Of a stretch of DNA of 13,616 nt, positions 171 to 11,022 are shown in pieces (position 1 is the first letter of the stretch; the number at the start of each line of letters is the position of its first letter). This DNA comes from a virus. The stretch is taken from UHGV virus genome UHGV-0269933; one strand, given 5' to 3'. A program made the position numbers and the translations under genes. Below the pieces are notes generated by a model. It saw only the letters and a program-made list of their open reading frames with translations. It made no database searches and had not been told where the DNA came from.

Positions 171-944
171 ATGGTGTACATGAAGTCTATTCTTGATGAA
201 CTTAGTACTGATATTGAGCGCGCTGAAAGTCTACAGTCCCAGCTGATTAGCGTAGCTACTGGCGGACCTGCGTTACCATATGAATATCAGGAGCTAAGAC
301 GTTTTTTTGTTGAATCACCACTATATAGCAACATTATTCCCTCTTTCGTAAAAACAAACCGCAACACCGACCAATTTTGGCAATTTATTAAATACAAATT
401 TGGTACATATGCTGAAAGAAGGCAGTACATTTGGGATGAATTCCAAGAATTGATGGACTATCTGGAGGGTAAAAACAAAGCACCCGCAGATGAGGACATC
501 TCTGATGTATTAAGACGGTTTGATGAGGATGGTGTTCACACCGTGTGGATGAAAGCACTAGAACGGCGCCACACAGACCCGGATGGGGCGATAACCTCTG
601 CAAGAACACTTCTAGAAACGGTTTGCAAGCACATTCTTGATGATATGGATGTCCCCTATAATAATAAAAATATAGAAATGTCAGAGCTTTATAAAATACT
701 ATCAAAAGAACTTAACTTATCTGCCGACCAGCATACTGAAAGTATTTTCAAACAAATTCTTGGTGGTTGTTCAGCCGTTGTAAATGGGCTAGGTACTCTT
801 CGTAATAAACTTGGTGACGCACATGGAAAGAATCGCTCATCAGTTAAACCATCACCAAGGCATGCAGAACTCGCTGTAAATTTATCAGGCTCAATGGCTC
901 TTTTTCTAATTAGCTCATGGTTAAACCTTAAAGATAAAAATTAA
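171..944 (+). CDS. Abortive-infection family protein (Abi_C-like C-terminal domain); likely true start ATG at 180
   Basis: 257-aa ORF. C-terminal LGTLRNKLGDAHGK motif after a TLLETVCKHIL helix resembles the Abi_C family signature (from memory). AT-rich relative to flanks, own promoter and SD. Confidence 0.55.
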   Translation: MVYMKSILDELSTDIERAESLQSQLISVATGGPALPYEYQELRRFFVESPLYSNIIPSFVKTNRNTDQFWQFIKYKFGTYAERRQYIWDEFQELMDYLEGKNKAPADEDISDVLRRFDEDGVHTVWMKALERRHTDPDGAITSARTLLETVCKHILDDMDVPYNNKNIEMSELYKILSKELNLSADQHTESIFKQILGGCSAVVNGLGTLRNKLGDAHGKNRSSVKPSPRHAELAVNLSGSMALFLISSWLNLKDKN

Positions 945-969
945 TGAACTATGGACGTGATATGACCAA

Positions 970-1227
970 TTAGTTAATCATTATGTTCATCGGTTTAAGC
1001 TGTTTCTGGCTGTTCACCAGCCAATCTTGCATGTATTTGCACCAGGTACTGAACATCGCCTCATCAGTGCCTGGATAGGTGTACAGATACCCCATAAGGA
1101 CTTTATCGGTAATCTCATCCTCTTGATCCCAACCAATGATGAATTGACGAAATAGGCCGTATGATTTAGCCGGATCCGTATTCCTCCACGTTTCCACTAC
1201 TACATCGAATGCCGGAACCCTGAATGT
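970..1227 (-). pseudogene. 3' remnant of an unknown gene truncated by the IS66-family element
   Basis: Track ORF 970..1293; its N-terminal 22 aa are translation of the IS terminal repeat. Only the C-terminal ~85 aa (RVPAFDVVVETWRNTDPAKSYGLFRQF...) lie outside the IS. No start codon or SD. Confidence 0.35.
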
Positions 1228-2001
1228 GTAAGCGTGCAGTGAGAACCGTATTGACGAAGTGAAGCTGGTCAGGCAGGCAGAGTAACCCGCCACGGGAGCA
1301 GAGCACCCACCCGGTTCACAGGCCAGTCGGCGATGACATCAAGTACATAATGCAGATAGCGTTCCGGATCCACGCCGTTTAATTTGCACGTCCCGATAAG
1401 ACTGTACAGTGACGCACCGCGCTCACCACCATGATCCGAGCCGAAGAACAGCCAGTTTTTTCTCCCCAGACTGACCCGTCGTAGGGCGTTTTCGGCAATG
1501 TTATTATCCACCTCCACCCAGCCATCTTCTGCATAGCGGATCAGCGCCGGCCACTGGTTCAGCGCATACCCGAACGCCTTCGCCAGTTCTGAGTGCCTTG
1601 AGAGGGTTTTCTGTTTCTCCCGCAGCCACCCCTCCAGTGACGCCAGCAGCGGCAGCACTTTTTGGTGCCGGACTGCCTGCCGTTCCTCTGCTCTTTTACC
1701 TCTGATCTCCGACTCGATGGCATACAGCTCGCCGATCCGTTTCAGCGCCTCTTGCGAATGTCTGTCCTCTGGCTTTACTGGTGTTCATGTATTTTTCAAA
1801 GCCGGGGAGTGTAACTGACAGCGCTCGAAATACCTCTCGCGGTGTGCTAATCACTCGCTGGTGCTCCCGGCCAAATAATCTGATCAGAGGACCACTCAGT
1901 TTGATAGTTGTCATGACTTCTGCACATGGATTCATAGCCGCCTCAGTTAATTTTGGAGAAAGGAAACGGTTAGGCTTTTTTTAGCTCAAAATAGCGCTTA
2001 C
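1228..2001 (-). mobile_element. Internally deleted IS66-family insertion sequence remnant (~0.77 kb)
   Basis: GTAAGCG-type terminal sequences at both ends (1228 on +, 2001 on -). Contains the C-terminal ~170 aa of an IS66 TnpC-like transposase. No matching 8-bp target-site duplication (ctgaatgt vs catttcct). Confidence 0.7.
1269..1783 (-). pseudogene. IS66-family transposase (TnpC) C-terminal fragment
   Basis: Translation ...ALKRIGELYAIESEIRG...LAKAFGYALNQWPALIRYAEDGWVEVDNNIAENALRRVSLGRKNWLFFGSDHGGERGASLYSLIGTCKLNGVDPERYL...LLPW matches the conserved TnpC C-terminus. In-frame stop lies upstream at ~1786; N-terminal two-thirds absent. Confidence 0.8.
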
Positions 2002-2161
2002 CATTTCCTTTCTTTTTAGATGGTGTTTTCATTAAAAACATATAGTTACATCGAAGAAGAACAGAAACGGCAAATCGCAGAAAATTTTCATAAATAGCAA
2101 GAATCTGCGAGGTCGCCGCCCCGTAGCAGGCCGAATTGCCCGAAAGGACCCGCGCCGAAAT

Positions 2162-2268
2162 CGCTCAAACTTCAATCGGCCGAGTTTTCGAGGCGTTAAA
2201 GAGTAGATATGGGAATATCACATATGTAAAAACCAGCCGCGCTCAAACTTCAATCGGCCGAGTTTTCG
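2162..2268. repeat. Pair of perfect 29-bp direct repeats (2162..2190, 2240..2268) with embedded 9-bp-stem hairpin in second copy
   Basis: cgctcaaacttcaatcggccgagttttcg occurs twice, 78 bp apart. Second copy extends into aatcggccg-agtttt-cggccgatt inverted repeat. Confidence 0.6.
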
Positions 2269-2307
2269 GCCGATTACCAGGTCCGCCGGGTCATTCGGGC
2301 CTGTCGG

Positions 2308-2694
2308 TCAGCCAATCAACGTGCTTTTCCCGCCGCGAGCCTGCTGGCGCACACGCTCGGCCTTAAGGCAAAGAGATGCTTCAGGCTTAGCAGGTACAGG
2401 AACATGGCAGGTTTCAGAGGTCCGGGGAATGTTATTGATCCATTCAATAACTTCACTCAGATACCACGCCTTGCGCCCCTCAGTGACCTGGACGCGTACT
2501 GGAAACTCACCTCGCGCTTCGAGATTCAGCAATGTACGGCGGCTCAGCGTGGTGAGTTCTATGACCTGATTCATATCAACCAGGCGCTCACTGACGTTCA
2601 TTTTGTCTGCCATCTCCAGCAGTTCACCCACCACTGGATCCGGATAGAGAGCATTGGCGGTGGCCATCAGGCTGTTATTTTTATCTTGCATCAT
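2308..2694 (-). CDS. AlpA/Vis-family HTH DNA-binding protein (second copy, with N- and C-terminal extensions)
   Basis: Core MNQVIELTTLSRRTLLNLEARGEFPVRVQVTEGRKAWYLSEVIEWIN fits the phage AlpA/excisionase-type HTH pattern. Start ATGATG at 2694/2691 with AAGGAG SD; the 144-aa track ORF start is an unsupported upstream extension. Confidence 0.55.
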   Translation of the reverse strand: MMQDKNNSLMATANALYPDPVVGELLEMADKMNVSERLVDMNQVIELTTLSRRTLLNLEARGEFPVRVQVTEGRKAWYLSEVIEWINNIPRTSETCHVPVPAKPEASLCLKAERVRQQARGGKSTLIG

Positions 2695-2701
2695 AATCTC
2701 C

Positions 2702-3043
2702 TTACACCAGTGCCAGTGGCTGAACAGAAATACCAGAGCCAACGAACGCTGCTACTTTTGCAGAAAGCGTGGTTACATCATCAGGCCAGTTAAGGGCATC
2801 AACATTCAGCACGCCAGCTTTGTAGACCTGAGCATGTGTCTGGCTTGCGGTATCAACAGCAAAGCAAGATACATAGACAGCCTGCCCGGCATGCGCCCCA
2901 TCCCAGACCACCAAAGCCCCATTGGTAGCATCCTGCATAAGTGGAGTCAGCGCGGGAATAACGCCCTTTGCTCCAGCGAAGATACCCAGAGTTGTCACCA
3001 GCGCTTCAGTACCGGCCGCCAGTTCAGTGTAATGCGTCGTCAT
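2702..3043 (-). CDS. Phage head decoration protein, lambda gpD-like
   Basis: 113 aa; ALTPLMQDATNGALVVWDG...VYKAG...AAFVGSGISV aligns with lambda gpD (AMTPLMLDTSSRKLVAWDG...FYKSG...TAFAGTAISIV). AAGGAG SD; translationally coupled to upstream capsid gene. Confidence 0.75.
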   Translation of the reverse strand: MTTHYTELAAGTEALVTTLGIFAGAKGVIPALTPLMQDATNGALVVWDGAHAGQAVYVSCFAVDTASQTHAQVYKAGVLNVDALNWPDDVTTLSAKVAAFVGSGISVQPLALV

Positions 3044-3052
3044 GATTACTCC

Positions 3053-4093
3053 TTAGGCCACGCGAACGGTGACAAAACGGTTGATACGGGCCGGGATAGG
3101 CTGCGGTGCGGAGTGGGTCTGAACGTACTCAATAGCTGGGTCGCCAGGAACAATGTAGTTCTTTGGCGCCAGCTCAGCTTTGGTAATACCCATACGGATG
3201 AGCTCTGGATCCTGAATTCCGCCGTAGGCCACAATGCCCTGCAGGGCGGTGTTTCCCAGCACCATCAAATCAGGATCGAGGAAGTGCTTTTCGGTGCCGT
3301 CTTCGTCGGTATAGCGACCGCTATAAACCACAATAGCCACATCGCCCATATAGCCTTTAAAGCTCACTGAATCGCCCAGGTCTTTAAGTGCTGTTTCAAG
3401 CTGTGCGTTGGAGCCGCGGCGCGTGTCGAGTACATCTTTAATCGCTTTGAAAGAACGATATTTTTTCCAGACGTTCCCGCCCATAATGATGATATTGGTT
3501 ACGCCTTCACTCAGCTCTGAATAGGTTTCAATATCGTCATTTGGATCAAACGTCGTTTTATCTTTACCTGACCAGGCAGCGCCACCAGCCTGAGTGATTA
3601 TATTCTGGGATTTGATATTCCAGTCCAGCTCATAACGCTCGATCCCTTCCCCCTCAATAATATTTTTCCCGGTAGTTACAGCCTGAACAGCCAGCCATTC
3701 AATACGCGCACGAATAGCAATAGACTGTTTGAGGATTGACTGTTTTACCTTGATATTGCGGGTATCAAGCGTGCTGTATTGATCAGGAGTAACACCAGCA
3801 GGACGAACAGCCAGTTTGTTAGGGTCAATGTTGCTCTTTGGTTTCATGTAGCCAGGACGGATAGACTTGGACTCATATCCCTCATCACGCGCCACCTTAC
3901 TACCCACCATAGGCGAACAGAACGCCGCGATTGGAATATTTGGGTCGTCGATAGTGTCCAGGATGATATCGCGCGTTTCAAAAGTAACTGCGCGGGTAAA
4001 GAATAAATCAGTGAACAGGGTTTTTAGTTGCTTCTGAATATCCTCAGCGCTAACAACCCGAACCAGCGCCGCAGGTGAATATAAATCTGGCAT
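3053..4093 (-). CDS. Major capsid protein, lambda gpE-like
   Basis: 346 aa, full-length collinear similarity to lambda gpE (341 aa): PGYMKPK..., ITQAGGAAWSGKDKTTFDPNDDIETY..., FRSFKAIKDVLDTRRGSNAQLETALKDLG...YMGDVAIVVYSG...MVLGNT...YGGIQD...GDPA... SD GAGG upstream of ATG. Confidence 0.9.
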   Translation of the reverse strand: MPDLYSPAALVRVVSAEDIQKQLKTLFTDLFFTRAVTFETRDIILDTIDDPNIPIAAFCSPMVGSKVARDEGYESKSIRPGYMKPKSNIDPNKLAVRPAGVTPDQYSTLDTRNIKVKQSILKQSIAIRARIEWLAVQAVTTGKNIIEGEGIERYELDWNIKSQNIITQAGGAAWSGKDKTTFDPNDDIETYSELSEGVTNIIIMGGNVWKKYRSFKAIKDVLDTRRGSNAQLETALKDLGDSVSFKGYMGDVAIVVYSGRYTDEDGTEKHFLDPDLMVLGNTALQGIVAYGGIQDPELIRMGITKAELAPKNYIVPGDPAIEYVQTHSAPQPIPARINRFVTVRVA

Positions 4094-4301
4094 ATATTAC
4101 CTCAGTAAAATAAATAGAGCGTTCATCACAAAAATAATGTTAACACTGACAAACACAGAATGATTGAATGCAATGATGTGCAATAGAGTGCAATAATGTA
4201 TAAAGTTAATTCACGGTGATATGGCCCGCTAAATATCTGTTAATGTCCTCACTGTTATTTCCTCCAAATAACATCGTTCGTTAAAAATCCATGTTTTCCC
4301 A

Positions 4302-4331
4302 AGCGGGTCTGGTTGCAGCCCGCTTTTTTTT
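4302..4331 (+). terminator. Rho-independent terminator on + strand (hairpin + T8) with no annotated + strand gene upstream
   Basis: agcgggtctggttgcagcccgct stem-loop followed by tttttttt. Lies in the leader region upstream of the capsid gene. Confidence 0.45.
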
Positions 4332-4366
4332 CGTCTTTCGCAAAATTATGGATCGGCAAAATGAGT

Positions 4367-4646
4367 GGTGAAAATCACCCTACCCACAGCTTTAAAATTA
4401 AAAAATATCCTTTTAAGTGTTCACCCGTTCACCTTTGCGAATTTCTTAATTAAATTCATGTAGTTATAGGGTGAATACTACTCTTTCAGGTATTCACTAG
4501 TGTTCACCCTACCCTTCACCCTTTAGGGCAAAAAACAATCAAAAGGTGAACAGGTGAATACTTGGTGAATACTTAATAAATAAGTGTCCACCCCTTAACA
4601 CTCTGTTATTAATAGAATTTTAAACAGGGTGAATACTGGTGAACAC
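4367..4646. repeat. Iteron cluster of P4 ori/crr type (TGTTCACC / GTATTCACC), ~12 copies in both orientations
   Basis: TGTTCACC at 4418, 4426, 4501; GGTGAACA/GGTGAATAC at 4470, 4545, 4553, 4564, 4628, 4638; variants at 4490, 4513, 4585; GGTGAAAATCACC palindrome at 4367. Matches the P4 type I iteron motif bound by alpha (recalled). Confidence 0.7.
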
Positions 4647-4659
4647 TTTATCTATAACT

Positions 4660-5361
4660 TTACTCTACCCCTTCATTCTCAGTAGTGATTGCACATGATG
4701 GCATCCAGTCGCCAGAATCATCATGCAGGGTTACGTTAGAGCGTATGCCATGTTTGGTTTTCCGCTTCTGGTATTCCTTCCCATACTCAACCATTGCGCC
4801 AGGCATATCTGTACCGAACCGCATCAGTGAGACAGGCTTACTCAGGCCATTGGCTCTCATGTATGCCAGATAGGCGTGATACAGGTACTTGCGCGGGCTG
4901 AATGGCACTATCTCGGCATTACCGATAAACATCCCGTCACACACTACCGACGCCATCAGGTAGCCGCAGAAGTCCACCAGCGAATCACCTTCACGCTTGA
5001 TCGCCAGAGCCTCCTCTGATTTCTGCTGCTCATACAATAACCGTCTGGCTTCGTCCTGGTCTGCAAAACGTGTAAGCAGATGGCGGATAACTACAGCCAG
5101 TTCCCCTTCTATTTTCTCTGCCAGCATCGAGTCTCGCTCGTTTTCTGGTACAACCTCCGAGAAATTGAAAATAACCCGGCGCCGCGAAATCCCCCCGCTA
5201 CGGTCGCTGAATGTCATAGCATTGTTGTTTACCGCCAGCACCACCGCCGGAATACGGGTTGAATATGGTGCTTTATGTTTAGGATCGATAGACACCTTGT
5301 CACCACCAGTTATGGCCTTAATACCTGCACCATCGCCAGCGTACCGGGTCATATCAGGCAT
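4660..5361 (-). CDS. P4 alpha-type primase/helicase C-terminal (iteron-binding) domain homolog, stand-alone/truncated
   Basis: 233 aa beginning near the SF3-helicase arginine-finger region (AVVLAVNNNAMTFSDRSGGISRRRVIFNF). No Walker A/B or primase domain. Located immediately upstream of the TGTTCACC iterons, as the alpha 3' end is in P4. Confidence 0.55.
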   Translation of the reverse strand: MPDMTRYAGDGAGIKAITGGDKVSIDPKHKAPYSTRIPAVVLAVNNNAMTFSDRSGGISRRRVIFNFSEVVPENERDSMLAEKIEGELAVVIRHLLTRFADQDEARRLLYEQQKSEEALAIKREGDSLVDFCGYLMASVVCDGMFIGNAEIVPFSPRKYLYHAYLAYMRANGLSKPVSLMRFGTDMPGAMVEYGKEYQKRKTKHGIRSNVTLHDDSGDWMPSCAITTENEGVE

Positions 5362-5427: not shown

Positions 5428-5620
5428 TGCCGCATTTAGTGCCGCGTTTAGCAATGCCGCACTTAGCGCCGCACCAGTTTTCTCAAAAAATTACGCAAAC
5501 CCAGTAATGACGTGGGTTTCAGTGAAATGCCGCACTTAGCGCGTGTATACAGGGACTAAGTGCGGCATTTGGTCATAAAACATACTAAATGCCGCACATG
5601 CCGCACTTACCGCCGCATTT
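5428..5620. repeat. Cluster of >=5 copies of ATGCCGCACTTAGCGC-like repeats including a 15-bp perfect inverted repeat
   Basis: Copies at ~5428, 5455, 5527, 5554 (inverted), 5588-5620. AAATGCCGCACTTAG-N16-CTAAGTGCGGCATTT at 5526..5571. Hairpin aaaccca/tgggttt at 5497..5519. Confidence 0.6.
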
Positions 5621-6983
5621 ACTCGACTGTTACCGGGTAAAGGTTCTCACCCTCGATGCGAATAATTTGCTCACTCTCCAGCTTGTCCAGCCAGCGCGGG
5701 AATGACTTTCTCACTTTGTCTGAGCCCAGCGTTGCACGCAGATCGTCTTTAATGACGGAGATAGTGCATGGCTCCCCCTTAGCTGTTCGGCTGCGAACTG
5801 CCTGCCATAGTGCATGATGGTTATCGCTAAGACGGGATACATGGGCCAGTTCAGGCTCAACCTCTTTAGCCTCTCTCGGCTGATCGTGCACAACCAGAGA
5901 GCAAACAAGCTCGCCATCTTCATCGGTGTAAAGCTCTGCCGTTCTCAGGTCATACGCTTTACGCTCTGGCTCCTCCGCGTCTTTCATCTTGGTACAGGTC
6001 AGAATAAGCGCTTTTCCATCCCCTTCACGCTTAACGTTAAATTCAGTATCAAGCGCAGCGCGGAAAGCACTGGAACCGCGAGCGCCTTTCCCTTCATCTT
6101 TGCCGGAGTGGTGAACTACCAGCACCGTTGCACCCGTTTTCTGTTTGATAACGTCACACCCTTCAATAAATGCCCCCATATCACGAGCATCGTTCTCGTC
6201 GTTACCGCCAAAACAACGGGCCAGCGTATCGATCACCACCATGCGAACCGGCACACCACATTCGGCTTCAATCTGCCTGGCAGCCAGAAGAACTTCTGTA
6301 ACCTCTGACTCACGCACCGGGAACACCGGACGATTGACCAGCCAGAGGTTGTCTGCCTGTATGCCATGCACCTGTTCCCATGCCCGTATACGCCGGGGAA
6401 CACCTACACCACCCTCGCCAACCACATACAGCACCGCGCCGGGAGTGACCTTCTTCCCCGCCCATGGCAGACCAGCAGCGATATGACAGGCCCACGACAC
6501 GGCAAGAAAACTCTTATACGAACCGCTGGGGCCGTAAATGCTGCACAGTGATTGCGCTGGCAGAAAGTGTTTAAGGATATAGTCCTGACGGATATCAAAG
6601 CCCTCAGAACCGCGAGAGAGAGGCAGCTTTGTCCTGAACTTTGCACCAGCATCAGGGAATACGCGGTGAATGCGCTGCACGTCAGACAGCATGGCATTCA
6701 TTTCCCCTTCGCCTATCTCTTCCACCAGCACAGAACGCCGCGCGGTAATCATATGTTTGCGGTCGGTATCGAGATACCCGGCATCACAAAGCTCCTCATA
6801 CGGCATTGCTGCTATCTGGTTGAGGCGAGCCACCAGCTTTCCGTAACGGGTAGTGGGGTCCTTATGCTGGTGGAGAGCTTTATCCAAATCGCTGCGACTG
6901 TACTGCTTGCCATGCGCCCACAGATACGAACAGGTGAACAAGGCATCCGATACGGTTTCTACAGCTGTCAGTTGTACCGTCAT
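5619..6983 (-). CDS. RepA-like replicative helicase / AAA_25 (RecA-fold) ATPase with N- and C-terminal accessory domains
   Basis: 454 aa; Walker A GPSGSYKS, Walker B-like VVIDTLARCF, HHSGKDEGKGARGSSA motif typical of RSF1010 RepA/DnaB-like helicases. ATGA overlap with upstream gene. Confidence 0.75.
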   Translation of the reverse strand: MTVQLTAVETVSDALFTCSYLWAHGKQYSRSDLDKALHQHKDPTTRYGKLVARLNQIAAMPYEELCDAGYLDTDRKHMITARRSVLVEEIGEGEMNAMLSDVQRIHRVFPDAGAKFRTKLPLSRGSEGFDIRQDYILKHFLPAQSLCSIYGPSGSYKSFLAVSWACHIAAGLPWAGKKVTPGAVLYVVGEGGVGVPRRIRAWEQVHGIQADNLWLVNRPVFPVRESEVTEVLLAARQIEAECGVPVRMVVIDTLARCFGGNDENDARDMGAFIEGCDVIKQKTGATVLVVHHSGKDEGKGARGSSAFRAALDTEFNVKREGDGKALILTCTKMKDAEEPERKAYDLRTAELYTDEDGELVCSLVVHDQPREAKEVEPELAHVSRLSDNHHALWQAVRSRTAKGEPCTISVIKDDLRATLGSDKVRKSFPRWLDKLESEQIIRIEGENLYPVTVE

Positions 6984-7348
6984 TTTGGAATGCCCCCGCT
7001 CATCTGGAATTTGCCGATCAGAGGATGGAACCAGTATGCAGAGCCATATTTGCGCTTAGCACTGCGCAGCACCAACCGTGCCGCTTCCCTGAACTTTTCA
7101 TCAGGTGCAACGAACCCGCCTGATTTCAGTTTAACCAGCATCACCCCTGTGTTTTTCGCCAGCTCCTCAGCCTTTTTGGTTGAGATACCGTATTCAGCAG
7201 CCAGTGTTGCTACTGGCGTCATACCCGGAGGGATTTCTCCGCCCTGACTATCGGTAAGTGATTTAACCTGAGCCTCAAGGCGCAAGACCTTCTCAACCAG
7301 CAGATCAACGCGGTTAGCCAGTTCGTTAAACTTCACATTGCTGATCAT
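6980..7348 (-). CDS. Hypothetical protein with N-terminal coiled coil and putative HTH
   Basis: 122 aa; TPVATLAAEYGISTKKAEELAK looks HTH-like. ATGA start/stop overlaps on both sides. Confidence 0.55.
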   Translation of the reverse strand: MISNVKFNELANRVDLLVEKVLRLEAQVKSLTDSQGGEIPPGMTPVATLAAEYGISTKKAEELAKNTGVMLVKLKSGGFVAPDEKFREAARLVLRSAKRKYGSAYWFHPLIGKFQMSGGIPK

Positions 7349-7572
7349 GGTCTTGCCTCCTGCGTTTCAGGGTCTGAAAAAGTAGAAATATCCAGTGAGT
7401 TTGCCAGTTCGTCAGAAAGGCGCTGAGCCAGGTGCGTTAAACTCATTACATGGATACGCTCCGCCTCCCCCTTGATAGTTGAAAGGTAAGCAGCACATGA
7501 CATGAGCGCAGCAACCTCTTGCGCCAGTAACAGCAAATCTTTTTTGCTGCGGTAGGTGTAAAAGTTATCCAT
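7345..7572 (-). CDS. Hypothetical small protein (75 aa)
   Basis: Start ATG at 7572 overlaps upstream stop (ATGGATAA). Track ORF 7345..7689 extends upstream without support. Confidence 0.5.
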   Translation of the reverse strand: MDNFYTYRSKKDLLLLAQEVAALMSCAAYLSTIKGEAERIHVMSLTHLAQRLSDELANSLDISTFSDPETQEARP

Positions 7573-7750
7573 TGAGCGCTCCCGTTTCATTCTGCTCCAC
7601 CATGCTTGCCGCAAGTTGATCCGATACTCGTCTGGCCAGACTGATAAGGTTTTCACGCTCAACCTGATCAACGTCGTACTCTTCGACAACCATCAACAAC
7701 GCAGCCAGTTCACAGGCTATTGACGCACTTTTATTGGTTAATTCACGCAT
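7565..7750 (-). CDS. Hypothetical small protein (61 aa)
   Basis: Start ATG at 7750 in ATGCGTGA overlap with upstream gene stop. Track ORF 7565..7912 is an upstream extension in another gene's sequence. Confidence 0.5.
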
Positions 7751-8012
7751 GGCGCACCTCCTGAATAGCTGCGCTATCGAACTCCCAGCCACGGCGGGTG
7801 GTGTAATCGAAAAACGCAACGCGACAAGGAGACTGGGCGCGGATTTTGGCAGCGAAAACCAAATCCCAGCCGGGGAATGCAGAGCGGGCTTTATCTTCCG
7901 TATCAGCATCAAAGCGGAGCACTACAGGTGTGCATTTTGGGGTGTGGTCTGGGGTTGCCAGGAATAACCATGTAAATTCCGGGCGAGTTTGGGTATGCTG
8001 TTGATCAGCCAT
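7743..8012 (-). CDS. Hypothetical protein (89 aa), first gene of replication operon
   Basis: Start ATG at 8012 with GGAG SD ([13 protein letters not shown]...). The 318-aa track ORF 7743..8699 upstream of this Met is low-complexity, Cys/Arg/Ser-rich non-coding translation. Confidence 0.55.
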
Positions 8013-8139
8013 AACTGTTACTCCGATTAACGGTTTGGTTAGACGCCCTGGTACTGCTCTAACAGTCCGGGGCGTTGCTTTTTGGTATGCACCTGCCATA
8101 CACTTGATTACCATTTCAAAGTAATCAGGTGTCAACCAA

Positions 8140-8319
8140 ATGTCAACCATAGAAATTAAAGCCAAAGGTAACAAGCAGATCGCATTACGCGTAGAACCAA
8201 ACCTAGAAGAAGGAATTAAACAGGCTCTGGCGCAAGATGGTGACGCTTCTGTATCAGCATGGATAAAGCGAATAATCCGCAAAGAGTTACAGCAGCGAGG
8301 CATTGAGCCGAAAAGCTGA
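8140..8319 (+). CDS. Small ribbon-helix-helix-like DNA-binding protein (59 aa), candidate island regulator/repressor; absent from ORF track
   Basis: ATG 8140 with AGGTG SD 9 nt upstream; stop TGA 8317..8319. KQIALRVEP strand plus two amphipathic helices fits Arc/MetJ/CopG topology. Divergent from the replication operon across a 127-bp region. Confidence 0.5.
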
Positions 8320-8499
8320 TACCCAAAATCTGGGTAACGGTCGAAACTACGGGAATTCTCCGGGGTATGCTGCATTGCAGTACACCCGGCACTCTGTTCC
8401 AGTTCTCCCCAGATTTGGGGAAATGGGGTATGCGCCAATGCCGTACACCCTAAACAGCCCAATTTCTGGGTAGTTTCACGTAACCGCGCCATTGACACA

Positions 8500-8519
8500 G
8501 TTCCTGTAATTACAGGAAC
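8500..8519. promoter_or_regulatory. 20-bp perfect palindrome GTTCCTGTAATTACAGGAAC adjacent to TTGACA; candidate operator
   Basis: Perfect dyad symmetry. TTGACA hexamer at 8492..8497 immediately upstream. Confidence 0.45.
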
Positions 8520-8588
8520 GCTCAGGCTTTGACCACCAGCATTAACCCTGGTATCCTGACTTTGCTTAATTTTTTGGTAGTGACATTG

Positions 8589-8616
8589 GCGGCCCGGCAT
8601 GGCCGCTTTTGTTTTA
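8589..8616 (+). terminator. Rho-independent terminator on + strand
   Basis: gcggcc-cggcat-ggccgc hairpin followed by ttttgtttta; ~270 nt downstream of the RHH gene stop. Confidence 0.55.
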
Positions 8617-8634
8617 TGTGACATTCCCCACCCC

Positions 8635-8844
8635 TCACGCTGCTTTGCTGCGGCTCTGCTGCCATGCTGTGACCTCAGAAAGAAGCCAACCAACGGCACG
8701 ACCTCCCAGCTTACGGCGGGCGGGAAAGCTCCCCTCTTTTTCCATCATGTATCGAGTGGTTCGACAAATACCGGTTAGCTGTCGGCACTCAGCCTCACGG
8801 ATAACTCTTTCTGCTGGCTGCTGGGATTGTTTAATATTGTTCAT
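8635..8844 (-). CDS. alpA: AlpA-family transcriptional regulator (prophage CP4-57-type)
   Basis: 69 aa from MNNIKQ; ...[43 protein letters not shown] is the AlpA HTH signature. The longer 81-aa reading would translate through a hairpin and has no SD. Confidence 0.75.
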
Positions 8845-8880
8845 AAAAAAATGCTCTCGTTCGCTAAGGTTCGAGAGCAT
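8845..8880 (-). terminator. Terminator-like hairpin with 9-bp perfect stem directly abutting the alpA start codon
   Basis: On the - strand, atgctctcg-aaccttagcgaa-cgagagcat followed by ttttttt then ATG of alpA. The 3' arm contains the only SD-like GAGAG. Confidence 0.45.
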
Positions 8881-8959: not shown

Positions 8960-9802
8960 TCAAGATAATTCTTTCCTGATTTTATCTAAAGAATCACTTC
9001 TTATGATTTTATCCAAGAAAGGTTTTACCGTTTGAGCTATGGCAAAGGACTCCTTTTCTCCATCCGGGAACAGGGATACTGCGAGTACGCCAAGAGATAT
9101 TTTGCTGTCGGTAGCGCTTTCCCATGACATCAAATCAATAAGTGGAATTATTCTGTAGTCAATTATTTTCCGTCTGACGCTCTCCCAGTCCCCTGAGACT
9201 GGCTTATCTGGTTCAGGTATTCCGAGTTCTTCGCGCCATTTTGGGAGGAGGTTCGTGAATGCTTCAATCAAAAGATCATCTCTGTTGTTTAAGTCAACAG
9301 TAATCATCACGTTTTCCACAACATCAGAAAGTAAGTTTACTGGCTCGCGCATGATAGCCCAAAACATACCGTTATCTGCTGTAAACAAATCCCCCACCAA
9401 ATCATCGTCAACTACTATTGGCTTTCCTTTCCAGTGACCTTTATCAGCATTGATTTTATTTAAAAATGCCAACTCAAATCTCATTAATGGTTTTATACCA
9501 TCGCCGTAACTTAATTTTAGCAAATCAGGCTGAGTCTTGTACTCGTATTCCTTTTGCTTTTCAAGAAACCATTCTTCTGCTTTGAGTTCCCCGAATGGAT
9601 CACCAAAATTATTGTTAAGCGGGTATTTAGCACCATATTGCAAACCATAGTCAGGGCAGTCTGTATTTTTTATTGCTAAATCATCGCATCGCCAATAGAG
9701 CTGACGAAACAAATCCTTATCAGACATATTTTCAAGGTCATCATATTTTTCCAAGCTGAATGACTTTGGTAAGTCTCTTTTACTGTTAATTTTTTTTGTC
9801 AT
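8960..9802 (-). CDS. Hypothetical protein (280 aa), AT-rich cargo gene translationally coupled to integrase; function unknown
   Basis: ATG overlaps the integrase stop codon (ATGA). Markedly lower GC than neighbours; acidic, Lys/Asp/Glu-rich; no motif recognised. Confidence 0.6.
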   Translation of the reverse strand: MTKKINSKRDLPKSFSLEKYDDLENMSDKDLFRQLYWRCDDLAIKNTDCPDYGLQYGAKYPLNNNFGDPFGELKAEEWFLEKQKEYEYKTQPDLLKLSYGDGIKPLMRFELAFLNKINADKGHWKGKPIVVDDDLVGDLFTADNGMFWAIMREPVNLLSDVVENVMITVDLNNRDDLLIEAFTNLLPKWREELGIPEPDKPVSGDWESVRRKIIDYRIIPLIDLMSWESATDSKISLGVLAVSLFPDGEKESFAIAQTVKPFLDKIIRSDSLDKIRKELS

Positions 9803-11022
9803 CTTGCGACCTCAAGAATAGTAACATTTGAGATATCAGAGGTAATAACCTCTAATCTCTGCATCCATTTATTCAGTGCATCCAGCTTTTCAGGTAAATA
9901 CTGACTGCGGTTATATACGGACATGACACCGCCCAGCGCATGGCCCAGAAGCTGCTCGACAACATGCGGAGCAATTCCCATGTTGTTCAGAGTCGTGGAA
10001 AACGTACGGCGTAGATCGTGAAGCGTCCACGGTTCAGAGTGGCCCAGACGCTTATACAACATCCTTCCCCACTGACTGACAGCTTCCGGTTTCTTTATCT
10101 CTCCAAGCAAAAGCCCTGTGCTTTGGTGCTGCTCTAAGAGCTGTTTGATAAATGGGCGGATATCTACGGGAATAGGACGTAGTATTTTCTCACCACCTTT
10201 GCTGTGCTCTTTAGGTACAGTCCAAACCCAATCACTTAGATCCCATTCGGTTACGCGAGACAATCTCAACTCCTGAGTTCGGCACCCAAACACTACTAGC
10301 AGACGTAGCAGCGAGGAGTAGTAGGGCTTGAATTTCAAGCCTGAACACTCCCGCCATATATCAGCCAGTTCTTGCCGGGTATGTTCCCTGTCCCGTTTAT
10401 TCTGTTTACGTCCAACATCATCAATGGTCAGATCGTCCAGGACATTACTCACCGCGTACCGATGAACACGGCAGAACTTGAGGGCTTGCTTACACATTTG
10501 CAGAAGATAGCCAGCAGCTACAGGAGCCTCATCTCTCACCCTGCTGAAACACTCCAGCCAGTGGCGGGTTTCGCACATAGAGAGGGGAAACGCCCCAATA
10601 TATGGGTAGATATGCTTATTGAGCTGTTCTATATGCTTTTCTACATTAGCCCGTTTATGAGATGCATATTCCCTTATCCAGTATTCAAGTGCCTCTTTTA
10701 CAGTTACCGGCTTAAGTGTTTCCTGTGTGGTGACAGTTAACTGGTGTTTCGGGTTCTTCCCCTCAGCAAGCCAGGCACGACATTGATCTCGCTTTGCCCT
10801 CGCGGCCTTAAGTGAAAGATCGGGATAGTTACCTAACTTCAAACGCTGAGGGGCAGTACTGCGTCCACCAATACGGTATGTAAAATACCAGGTCATTATG
10901 CCTATCTTTGACACCTTTACGCTCAGGCCATCACCATCAGCGTAAAAGCTATCACCGGGGCTTTCCCTCCCAACCATCTTGCGGAGCGATGTATCGCTTA
11001 ACTTGTTCGTTCCACCAGCCAT
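9799..11022 (-). CDS. int: Site-specific tyrosine recombinase, P4-type integrase (Arm-binding N-domain + catalytic domain)
   Basis: 407 aa. N-terminal ...DGDGLSVKVSKIGIMTWYFTYRIGG...LKLGNYPDLSLKAARAKRD arm-binding pattern. C-terminal HDLRRTFST...LGHALGGVMSVYNRSQY catalytic motifs, similar to P4 Int. GAGG SD. Confidence 0.9.
   Translation of the reverse strand: MAGGTNKLSDTSLRKMVGRESPGDSFYADGDGLSVKVSKIGIMTWYFTYRIGGRSTAPQRLKLGNYPDLSLKAARAKRDQCRAWLAEGKNPKHQLTVTTQETLKPVTVKEALEYWIREYASHKRANVEKHIEQLNKHIYPYIGAFPLSMCETRHWLECFSRVRDEAPVAAGYLLQMCKQALKFCRVHRYAVSNVLDDLTIDDVGRKQNKRDREHTRQELADIWRECSGLKFKPYYSSLLRLLVVFGCRTQELRLSRVTEWDLSDWVWTVPKEHSKGGEKILRPIPVDIRPFIKQLLEQHQSTGLLLGEIKKPEAVSQWGRMLYKRLGHSEPWTLHDLRRTFSTTLNNMGIAPHVVEQLLGHALGGVMSVYNRSQYLPEKLDALNKWMQRLEVITSDISNVTILEVAR

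Follow-up and report, generated by a model that had tools for sequence, protein, structure and literature searches.

A small ribbon-helix-helix protein as a candidate local repressor of the icd-replication promoter in a phage satellite

The immI region of phage P22 combines two repressors, Arc and Mnt, with the sar antisense RNA, and in pMV158 the ribbon-helix-helix (RHH) protein CopG and the antisense RNA II act on repB. The developmental switches of P2 and 186 are built from face-to-face promoters whose starts lie tens of base pairs (bp) apart and whose transcripts overlap, under repressors that are not RHH proteins. In the immI region of P1, the c4 antisense RNA controls icd-ant; C4 and the CI RNA of P4 derive from sequence upstream of their target on the same strand. 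Here, we analyzed a 13,616-nucleotide (nt) stretch of viral DNA (UHGV virus genome UHGV-0269933; its whole length is called the window) and in it a locus with likenesses to these systems: a gene for a 59-amino-acid (aa) protein of predicted RHH fold, divergent from a replication operon that runs leftward from an Icd-like gene (icd) to repA.

In Gram-negative phage-inducible chromosomal islands (PICIs), overexpression of AlpA alone induces excision and replication of EcCICFT073, and helper phages switch alpA on; for a global repressor, Fillol-Salom et al. described the situation in these islands as unclear (PMC6092414). Mutation of alpA abolishes helper-phage induction and transfer of EcCIEDL933 (bioRxiv 10.1101/2022.09.08.507074), a capsid-forming PICI (cf-PICI). 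The activator of Gram-negative PICIs is known while their repressor is missing from the field, and the RHH gene sits on the icd-replication promoter. In the literature searched we found no RHH repressor in PICIs, cf-PICIs or satellites, and none of the best-ranked papers of a full-text search with satellite, PICI and repressor contains the term "ribbon-helix-helix."

Judging from the architecture of the locus and the way its parts co-vary, we think it reasonably probable that the RHH protein, together with facing promoters and operator-like boxes, serves as a local repressor and autoregulator of the icd-replication promoter, with an antisense RNA as a second layer of control. A predicted -35 element embedded in the start codon of the gene, boxes that vary with the type of protein, and co-inheritance of the whole as a cassette lend indirect support to the idea of a repressor, whose specificity would most likely be type-variable.

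The RHH gene and its predicted fold

The open reading frame (ORF) has an ATG start and 59 codons, preceded by a Shine-Dalgarno (SD) motif that was read from the sequence and has a purine-rich equivalent in related loci. A protein search found homologs in 98 protein clusters, nearly all of them 55-63 aa long, from Salmonella, Klebsiella, Rahnella, Erwinia, Pantoea, Xenorhabdus, Photorhabdus, Yersinia, Pasteurella, Avibacterium, and others, and a genome scan yielded 71 loci with the RHH gene (individual loci bear L numbers below) in Enterobacterales, Pasteurellaceae, and Orbaceae. An exhaustive profile search of 1.84 billion representatives brought up no more than 52 clusters at E<=1e-3, which makes this a small and narrow family. 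Against the closest locus (L002), we counted 23 synonymous and 4 nonsynonymous differences over 43 codons; the median dN/dS was 0.17 over the 171 pairs with usable dS, with dN between 0.04 and 0.45 and synonymous sites saturated in most comparisons. By these substitution patterns, the gene is under strong purifying selection. The first-pass annotation had given the ORF a proper SD and had named a lack of conservation in related islands among the findings that would refute its proposal; the AGGTG 8 nt before the ATG confirms the SD, and the homologs at 71 loci and the selection acting on the gene run clearly counter to such a refutation.

The same annotation called the gene unannotated, which is true of an O157:H7 cf-PICI but depends on the record, as relatives are labeled hypothetical protein or YlcI/YnfO family. 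In RefSeq, those of the type found in the Escherichia coli HZ13 island and those of the PPFQFRL type (types are named after their beta-strand; see below) are YlcI/YnfO family proteins and most others hypothetical proteins, and some databases use the label HicB family antitoxin. In E. coli O157:H7 F8092B (NZ_CP038355.1; L073), whose island resembles the cf-PICI EcCIEDL933, a 57-aa RHH gene at 7315-7488 is missing from the RefSeq annotation, which draws a pseudo, incomplete Icd-like coding sequence (7338-7931) over it on the opposite strand. The window holds the same trap for gene callers: a minus-strand ORF at 7743-8699 (318 codons from an upstream GTG) spans the RHH gene in antisense from end to end, its Icd-like part is confined to the last 89 codons (7743-8012), and the long ORF is an artefact, as in the O157:H7 mis-annotation.

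The family was found in one of 50,697 phage records, that one being a 15-kb satellite-like element, and on 111 plasmid records. At the single plasmid locus inspected, on a Klebsiella pneumoniae IncR plasmid (L074), the gene lies between IS26 and IS903B, divergent from an 86-aa hypothetical gene. At some loci (L010, L015, L062, and L067), the RHH gene is directly followed by another one, a paralogue in tandem; in Gilliamella/Orbaceae loci, the tandem paralogue resembles a classical YlcI/YnfO protein (…IRFEDDLLEQI…FSGWVK…).

An alignment-based AlphaFold2 model of the protein (pLDDT 75.6) consists of an extended N-terminus and two helices, 20-33 and 38-53. In a Foldseek search of the PDB, Arc ranked first (probability 0.85, TM 0.61-0.67), followed by NikR, MazE9, ParD, AtaR, and HicB, with AmrZ also among the best structural matches of the 59-aa model; the list of matches in BFVD was headed by viral models named CopG, RHH, or "Repressor." The invariant positions of the family alignment are R17 in the strand, D33-G34-D35, W41, and K43-L50, and the turn between the helices reads D33-G34-D35 and then A/E-S37 (G-x-x-S). 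An arginine in the strand and a glycine turn with a small polar residue that starts helix B and contacts phosphate are hallmarks of RHH proteins. Both the strand-helix-helix (beta-alpha-alpha) order within ~45-55 residues and the glycine turn between the helices, with its small polar residue and a basic residue in the alternating strand, are present in the predicted structure and the alignment. In the hhalign register, K-Q-I-A-L-R-V pairs with Arc Q9-F-N-L-R13 and the turn with G30-R-S32, an alignment that is statistically not significant.

Among sequence profiles, PHROG 228, "Arc-like repressor," matched the window protein with an E of 4e-5. The YlcI_YnfO_N model (NCBIfam NF041551) scored 20.0 bits (E 5e-4), under its curated 30-bit cutoff, so that the protein falls outside the family at the NCBI cutoff; 38 of 53 family members matched the model at E<=0.01 (best E 2e-5), again sub-threshold. 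The window protein is therefore a sub-threshold relative of YlcI/YnfO, for which we found no function in the literature searched. Family members also gave weak profile matches to RepB-RCR_reg, CB_ParB_C, HicB, TacA1, and VapB. Together, the predicted structure, a monomer model, and the fold matches support an Arc/Mnt-like RHH DNA-binding protein by fold, in keeping with the Arc/MetJ/CopG-type fold that had been read from the sequence at first pass; it would add another, so far uncharacterised protein to a well-known class of small repressors.

The control region between the RHH gene and icd

Exactly 127 bp of intergenic DNA (8013-8139) separate the RHH gene from the start codon of icd at 8012, and in ~60 of 70 loci a minus-strand gene begins 126-145 bp upstream of the RHH start. 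The divergence from a five-gene replication operon over 127 bp, as first described, thus holds for the window, and the layout is widely kept. The first divergent gene is usually Icd-like (MADxQ[HS]TQTRPKF...), with an unrelated 120-aa protein at some loci; in Xenorhabdus (L045-L050, L055), an Icd-like N-terminus (MADTQHNQTRPKF...) is fused in frame to a primase-type protein of ~920 aa, and the 130-bp regulatory region and RHH gene are unchanged. On its other flank, the RHH gene is convergent with alpA and int. A 15-kb Pasteurella element deposited as "phage Pmp8" has the equal arrangement.

Promoters were sought by a position-weight scan over all loci, with strict counts over 64 distinct regulatory regions that were compared with shuffles. 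The -35 of the predicted leftward promoter lies within the first codons of the RHH gene (coordinates of all features are in Table 1), and the exact TGTCAA, i.e., the last two bases of the start codon plus TCA-A, stands at this position in 64 distinct regions; the exact anchor is absent at five loci (L045, L053, L054, L057, and L063). A TAnnnT followed at 16-18 nt from TTGACA in 63 of the 64 regions, against 8% of shuffles. The codon for Ser-2 is TCA wherever the anchor is exact and TCT at L045 and L054, both without it, which argues for a constraint at the DNA level; such a -35 within the first codons would account for the (M/V)-S-T N-terminus kept across the family and for TCA being almost the only codon used for Ser-2. 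Leftward transcription would start near 8111 and give a leader of ~99 nt before the icd ATG.

A rightward pair, TTG and TAnnnT at a distance of 16-18 nt, was found at the equivalent place in 63 of 64 regions, and the two -10 boxes lie 13-18 nt apart across regions. The RHH transcript would likewise start near 8111, ~7 nt past its -10, facing the leftward promoter. With starts that nearly coincide, RNA polymerase would be unable to occupy both promoters simultaneously, and we infer a facing, mutually exclusive geometry. An independent promoter scanner reported TTGACA-17-TATAGT (11/12) in L008, at the same place as the leftward promoter, and, for the RHH promoter, TTGATT-16-TACAAT in the O157:H7 island.

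Across this junction lies an operator-like inverted repeat, the left arm of which (8100-8111) overlaps the RHH -10, while its right arm (8121-8132) overlaps the 5' part of the leftward -10 and extends into the leftward spacer. Copies of the half-site with 0-1 mismatches occur at only these two places in the 13.6-kb window. A second, imperfect dyad in the RHH promoter is weak alone; relatives have GTATGAC-N4-GTCATAC at its place (in L019, TGTATGAC/GTCATACA). Because small indels set sequences of the KQIALRV type out of register for a group consensus, boxes were sought by per-locus repeat searches. We distinguished seven types by their beta-strand, and six of them have two related boxes, a distal one ~41-61 nt and a proximal one 10-20 nt before the start codon, in a sequence that differs by type: ACACTTGATTAC/GTAATCAGGTGT for KQIALRV (the window), GTGTCAGACACATG twice for KQIAFRV (L022), CGTACGTACATAAC/GTTATGTACGTACG for PTFQIRI (HZ13), TTGTAATTACAA twice for DQYQIRL (L059), two exact 14-nt copies of GGTAATTACCATGT upstream of the gene for PPYQMRL (O157:H7, L073), and TGTAAT/ATTACA dyads for PPFQFRL (L031). 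The per-locus search found no box pair for KQINFRV (L020), nor in L025 (KQIAFRV) and L016 (KQIALRV). Types with a common Gln and Arg at the predicted DNA-facing positions of the strand have a common GTAATTAC core, which is an anecdotal link. The motif GGTATGC...RTACAC stands at 8084, 8362, and 8425 with spacings that differ, so that a fixed-spacing search for it gave no matches; since HZ13 keeps the copies at 8362 and 8425 with a different RHH type, these two were not counted as operators of the window protein.

The promoter region and the RHH gene are exchanged as a single cassette between near-identical islands. Over 2016 locus pairs, identity in the 58-nt promoter region followed that of the gene (r 0.73; partial 0.67 after correction for the icd-side flank), compared with a partial correlation of 0.15 with the icd-side flank given the gene. 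Six recombinant pairs have flanks at least 86% identical and different cassettes; they were found with a shorter flank, whereas a 165-nt left flank brought up no pair, as icd sequences part ways beyond ~15 codons. The clearest example is the pair of window and HZ13, with ~93-99% identity over the 5' end of icd and the terminator and, from 8321 onward, over alpA and the DUF6387 gene, and with int products that are 94% identical at the protein level; between these, the segment 8084-8320, with promoters, boxes, and gene, has been replaced as a block. Such co-variation is the pattern that a repressor with its own operators would be expected to leave, although linkage by itself contributes to it. 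The HZ13 cassette (L001, ~6583-6850) has an extra cysteine-rich ORF of ~85 aa (MMRIDEKGHFYCTCEVCGSE...CCNDCWEGNWDGW...) right after the RHH gene, which is absent in the window.

A predicted intrinsic terminator precedes the RHH promoter. In 63 sequences, 11 of the 13 pairs of its stem show compensatory changes; read on the plus strand, 94.3% of pairs are standard and 61 are G.U, vs. 87.9% and 9 G.U on the minus strand, and this strand-specific excess of G.U points to a plus-strand terminator; the 10 nt that follow the stem contain 6.6 T on average. Upstream of it, a TAnnnT at a fixed position, ending 13 nt inside the first gene, occurs in 42 of 52 distinct 5' coding regions from several unrelated first-gene families. 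In those 42, codon 6 specifies any of eight amino acids (H, S, G, Y, F, R, D, or C), and its third base is always T. From the conserved terminator and the fixed -10-like hexamer, we predict a cis-antisense RNA of ~78 nt over the icd ribosome-binding site, which would start near 8006 and be complementary to the start codon, SD, and leader of icd; the -35 of this unit is weak in the window. An immunity RNA of the P1 C4/P4 CI/isrK type was considered and rejected, as Rfam scans, at E<=1 for the window and at E<=10 for 7950-8700, returned nothing beyond noise (such as miRNA and NEAT1), and no family matched the region of the predicted antisense RNA (7950-8700, E<=10).

Downstream of the RHH gene, a promoter-like site and a second intrinsic terminator recur in HZ13 and Erwinia endophytica L008; the unit 8529-8617 would yield a plus-strand RNA of ~50 nt that abuts the 3' end of alpA. 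No minus-strand terminator was detected between alpA and the icd operon. The stretch 8320-8480 is non-coding and highly structured (z ~-3.2 on either strand), with two 26-nt hairpins GGGGTATGC...GTACACCC (8362-8387 and 8425-8450, 63 bp apart) and three copies of CCCAAAWTCTGGG (8322, 8408 inverted, and 8458). These repeats are probably not the operator of the window protein, because they are conserved in HZ13 with a different RHH type. A perfect 20-bp palindrome, GTTCCTGTAATTACAGGAAC (8500-8519), was rejected as part of the system, being not conserved in HZ13. Codons 6-9 of icd (7985-7996) and the sequence just after the RHH stop (8319-8330) show a 12-nt complementarity (11/12); a minus-strand transcript reading through from alpA might thus anneal to the 5' coding part of icd, in a manner that recalls P4 CI/seqA, or the match could be chance.

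Weighing the proposed role

In the mechanism we favor, the RHH gene and the ~60 bp in front of it would form an exchangeable control cassette. The protein, presumably as a dimer of dimers, would bind both arms of the inverted repeat and thereby silence the icd-replication operon, whose Icd-like gene is the presumed target, as long as the island is integrated, and would control its own production, and the antisense RNA (~8006-8083) would block the translation of escaped icd mRNA. Induction would still come from the activator AlpA, with alpA transcription, for which no terminator was detected, crossing the RHH gene in antisense and entering the operon. What we infer from the DNA is that the protein binds it, whether it represses or activates, where transcription starts, that an antisense RNA is made at all, and how the system and AlpA interact. 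Both the published work and the lack of a detected minus-strand terminator from alpA to the operon agree with a local repressor that yields to AlpA-driven transcription. The larger claim made at first pass, that of a candidate master regulator, found no support, because AlpA has been shown experimentally to be the key activator in Gram-negative PICIs and cf-PICIs and an alpA-like gene is present at 8635-8880.

Several observations weigh against a repressor, or against parts of the case for it. AlpA overexpression alone suffices to induce a related island (PMC6092414), so any repression by the RHH protein must be overridable and may be minor. Both window promoters are weak by consensus (3/6 hexamers) and below the threshold of the independent scanner, and the promoter argument therefore rests on positional conservation; the O157:H7 variant showed no good leftward -10 where one would be expected. 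The symmetry of the boxes partly coincides with the two -10 hexamers, so that some of the "operator" conservation may be promoter conservation, and co-inheritance of neighboring DNA can come from linkage alone. For the fold, no Pfam RHH family matched the window protein at E<0.01, a PDB profile search gave no significant match (the best RHH-like one was 2kke, E 1.1), hhalign against Arc reached a probability of 4%, and the structure is a monomer model of moderate confidence in which the beta-strand is merely "extended."

The net effect of the protein might also be activation or timing rather than quiescence, if it were a switch factor that favors one of the facing promoters or a true activator of the icd promoter. 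P22 Mnt, which raises its own promoter by shutting the opposing one, offers a model for this. We nevertheless consider it unlikely, as most small Arc-type proteins repress and boxes that overlap core elements of both promoters are more easily read as repressing both.

Alternatively, the protein could be an accessory factor aimed outside the island, at helper-phage or host promoters, its position beside icd being incidental and the local repeats serving autoregulation only. The gene does sit in the "dynamic zone" that Mageeney et al. described between alpA and the replication genes, with its Bro-type proteins, swappable anti-repressors, and immunity RNAs (PMC10111431); a 2026 survey lists YlcI/YnfO and Icd as accessory genes of cf-PICIs, and HicB-like proteins are counted among accessory genes in satellite surveys as well (PMC13612085). 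Cassette exchange is typical of accessory genes too. However, the gene keeps its distance from the first operon gene to within ~20 bp across first-gene families and bacterial orders, the leftward -35 is built into the RHH start codon, the window has no further copies of the box, and the family is almost absent from phage genomes, all of which make an outward-directed role improbable.

A toxin-antitoxin pair, in which the RHH protein would neutralise the Icd-like division inhibitor by protein contact, is highly unlikely. The name HicB family antitoxin given to some relatives, the weak matches to VapB, TacA, and HicB models, and the annotation of Icd-like proteins as division inhibitors would suit it. 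Yet the RHH gene has no co-directional toxin gene, its upstream neighbor being divergent and downstream ORFs absent or unrelated in most of the 70 loci, among which no recurrent partner ORF was found (the largest cluster, a lipoprotein-like ORF of ~50 aa, occurs at 4 loci). Helix B ends at residue 53 of 59, leaving 6 residues and no toxin-binding tail; the protein thus has neither the adjacent co-transcribed toxin gene nor the toxin-wrapping C-terminal extension of type II antitoxins. Moreover, the RHH gene and its spacing persist even beside first genes that are unlike Icd or that form part of a primase fusion.

Finally, a chance ORF or a decayed, functionless remnant, to which the shortness of the ORF and its failure to reach any curated family threshold might point, is ruled out for practical purposes by the conservation of length and sequence over three bacterial orders and by very low nonsynonymous alongside saturated synonymous change.

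Returning to repression, a bolder version of it is possible, though we hold it to be on the doubtful side: the cassette, taken together with the facing promoters and the cis-antisense RNA, would be the missing quiescence switch of Gram-negative PICIs, including capsid-forming ones such as EcCIEDL933, its specificity types would amount to satellite "immunity groups," and the lifting of repression, by AlpA-driven antisense transcription or by a helper-phage factor, would be the committed step of induction. The RHH gene occurs widely, from the EcCIEDL933-like O157:H7 island to Pasteurella elements, across dozens of genera. If it encodes a repressor, it would offer an experimental handle on island silence and the tightness of the replication lock and would explain the swapping of regulatory cassettes between otherwise identical islands. 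If it does nothing beyond autoregulation, the gene is one more small RHH regulator of the usual sort. In practice, it is overlooked or given a wrong label by annotation pipelines, and engineered PICI "drones" could be tuned through it.

Island setting and comparison with known systems

The window element is an integrated phage satellite of the cf-PICI type. Its island adjoins yhdJ and acrS/envR, and the HZ13 island, at the equal chromosomal site and with equal gene order, has all five operon genes annotated plus a prohead protease and a portal, features of such PICIs. The leftward operon comprises five co-directional ORFs, abutting or overlapping, from icd to repA; also on the minus strand are a D5-like fragment and genes for a lambda-E-type major capsid protein and for head decoration. 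On its left side (171-5361), the island looks rearranged.

Table 1. Features of the window, in order of position
Feature	Position	Strand	Remarks
Abi_C abortive-infection-type protein	171-944	+	
IS66 transposase fragment	1269-1658		
Lambda tail-assembly-I-like fragment	1696-1935		
Second AlpA-like gene	2308-2742		
D5-type primase/helicase	4660-5361		C-terminal part only
RepA/AAA_25 helicase	5619-6983	-	Last gene of leftward operon
122-aa ORF of leftward operon	6980-7348	-	Two further small ORFs between icd and this ORF
Icd-like gene	7743-8012	-	First in leftward operon; NF033153, E 4.5e-18
Predicted cis-antisense RNA unit	7994-8083	+	-10-like TATGCT at 7994-7999 in icd codons 5-7; ends at terminator
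Intrinsic terminator (predicted)	8043-8083	+	Stem 8043-8075, T-run TTGCTTTTT at 8075-8083; between icd start and RHH promoter
Predicted RHH promoter	8075-8104	+	-35 TTGCTT at 8075-8080 in terminator T-run, 18-nt spacer, -10 TACACT at 8099-8104
Second imperfect dyad GGTATGCACCTGCCATACAC	8084-8103		Spacer and -10 of RHH promoter
Inverted repeat ACACTTGATTAC-N9-GTAATCAGGTGT (operator-like)	8100-8132		11/12 complementary; centered on predicted starts
Predicted leftward -10 TACTTT	8118-8123	-	17-nt spacer from TTGACA
Shine-Dalgarno AGGTG	8127-8131	+	8 nt 5' of ATG
RHH (Arc-like) protein gene	8140-8319	+	Predicted beta-strand at ~12-18 (KQIALRV), helix A 20-33, helix B 38-53
Predicted leftward (icd) -35 TTGACA	8141-8146	-	Inside RHH codons 1-3 (A-TGTCAA-CC)
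Promoter-like TTGACC-17-TATCCT	8529-8557	+	Upstream TG; just before 8588-8617 terminator
Intrinsic terminator (predicted)	8588-8617	+	Would end RHH transcripts before antisense entry into alpA
AlpA-like excisionase/regulator	8635-8880	-	phrog_2790, E 7e-17; 99% identical to HZ13 "helix-turn-helix transcriptional regulator"; convergent with RHH gene
DUF6387 protein	8960-9802	-	
P4-type integrase	9799-11022	-	

Among described proteins, the small prophage proteins YlcI/YnfO (NF041551; Pfam DUF3950) are the best curated-family match, and relatives at the equal position in E. coli islands bear their name. Among satellite regulators, SaPI Stl and the Rpr of Gram-positive PICIs are likewise divergent from an excision/replication operon (PMC6092414), but they are larger helix-turn-helix proteins, co-directional with int and relieved by helper-phage proteins, whereas the window has a 59-aa RHH protein convergent with int and alpA. 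The classic satellite layout of the first-pass annotation thus holds only loosely: the gene is divergent from the replication operon but, unlike Stl, convergent with int and alpA.

As in the P2 and 186 switches, the predicted promoters fire toward each other from close by, repressor sites would cover one or both of them, and the choice between them would be mutually exclusive; in the window, by contrast, the predicted starts nearly coincide, and the protein is of the RHH kind. With the P1 c4, P4 CI, and isrK systems, the locus shares an Icd-type first gene whose translation start would here be targeted by RNA control (PMC10111431 for PICI C4/isrK), although the RNA predicted here would be a true cis-antisense transcript, unlike C4 and CI. 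The likeness to pMV158 would lie in the dual control of replication genes by an RHH repressor of ~45-60 aa and a small antisense RNA at the translation start, and family members give weak, sub-threshold profile matches to RepB-RCR_reg (PF10723) and to the replication regulatory protein RepA (NF010256). CopG, however, shares a transcript with its target gene and is a repressor of the operon to which it belongs, whereas the candidate repressor of the window is divergent from its target, and pMV158 is a rolling-circle plasmid rather than an integrated satellite.

The window differs from P22 immI in several respects. It has one RHH gene and not two, with no significant sequence similarity to Arc; it would control icd and satellite replication genes and not an antirepressor; and the predicted -35 of one promoter lies in the start codon of the candidate repressor. 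What the two would have in common is an RHH repressor of ~53-83 aa on short dyads, predicted in the window, that overlap close opposing promoters; an antisense RNA of ~70 nt, likewise predicted here, that begins within the first gene and spans the ribosome-binding site of that gene; and a controlled product that is harmful if expressed in the lysogen.

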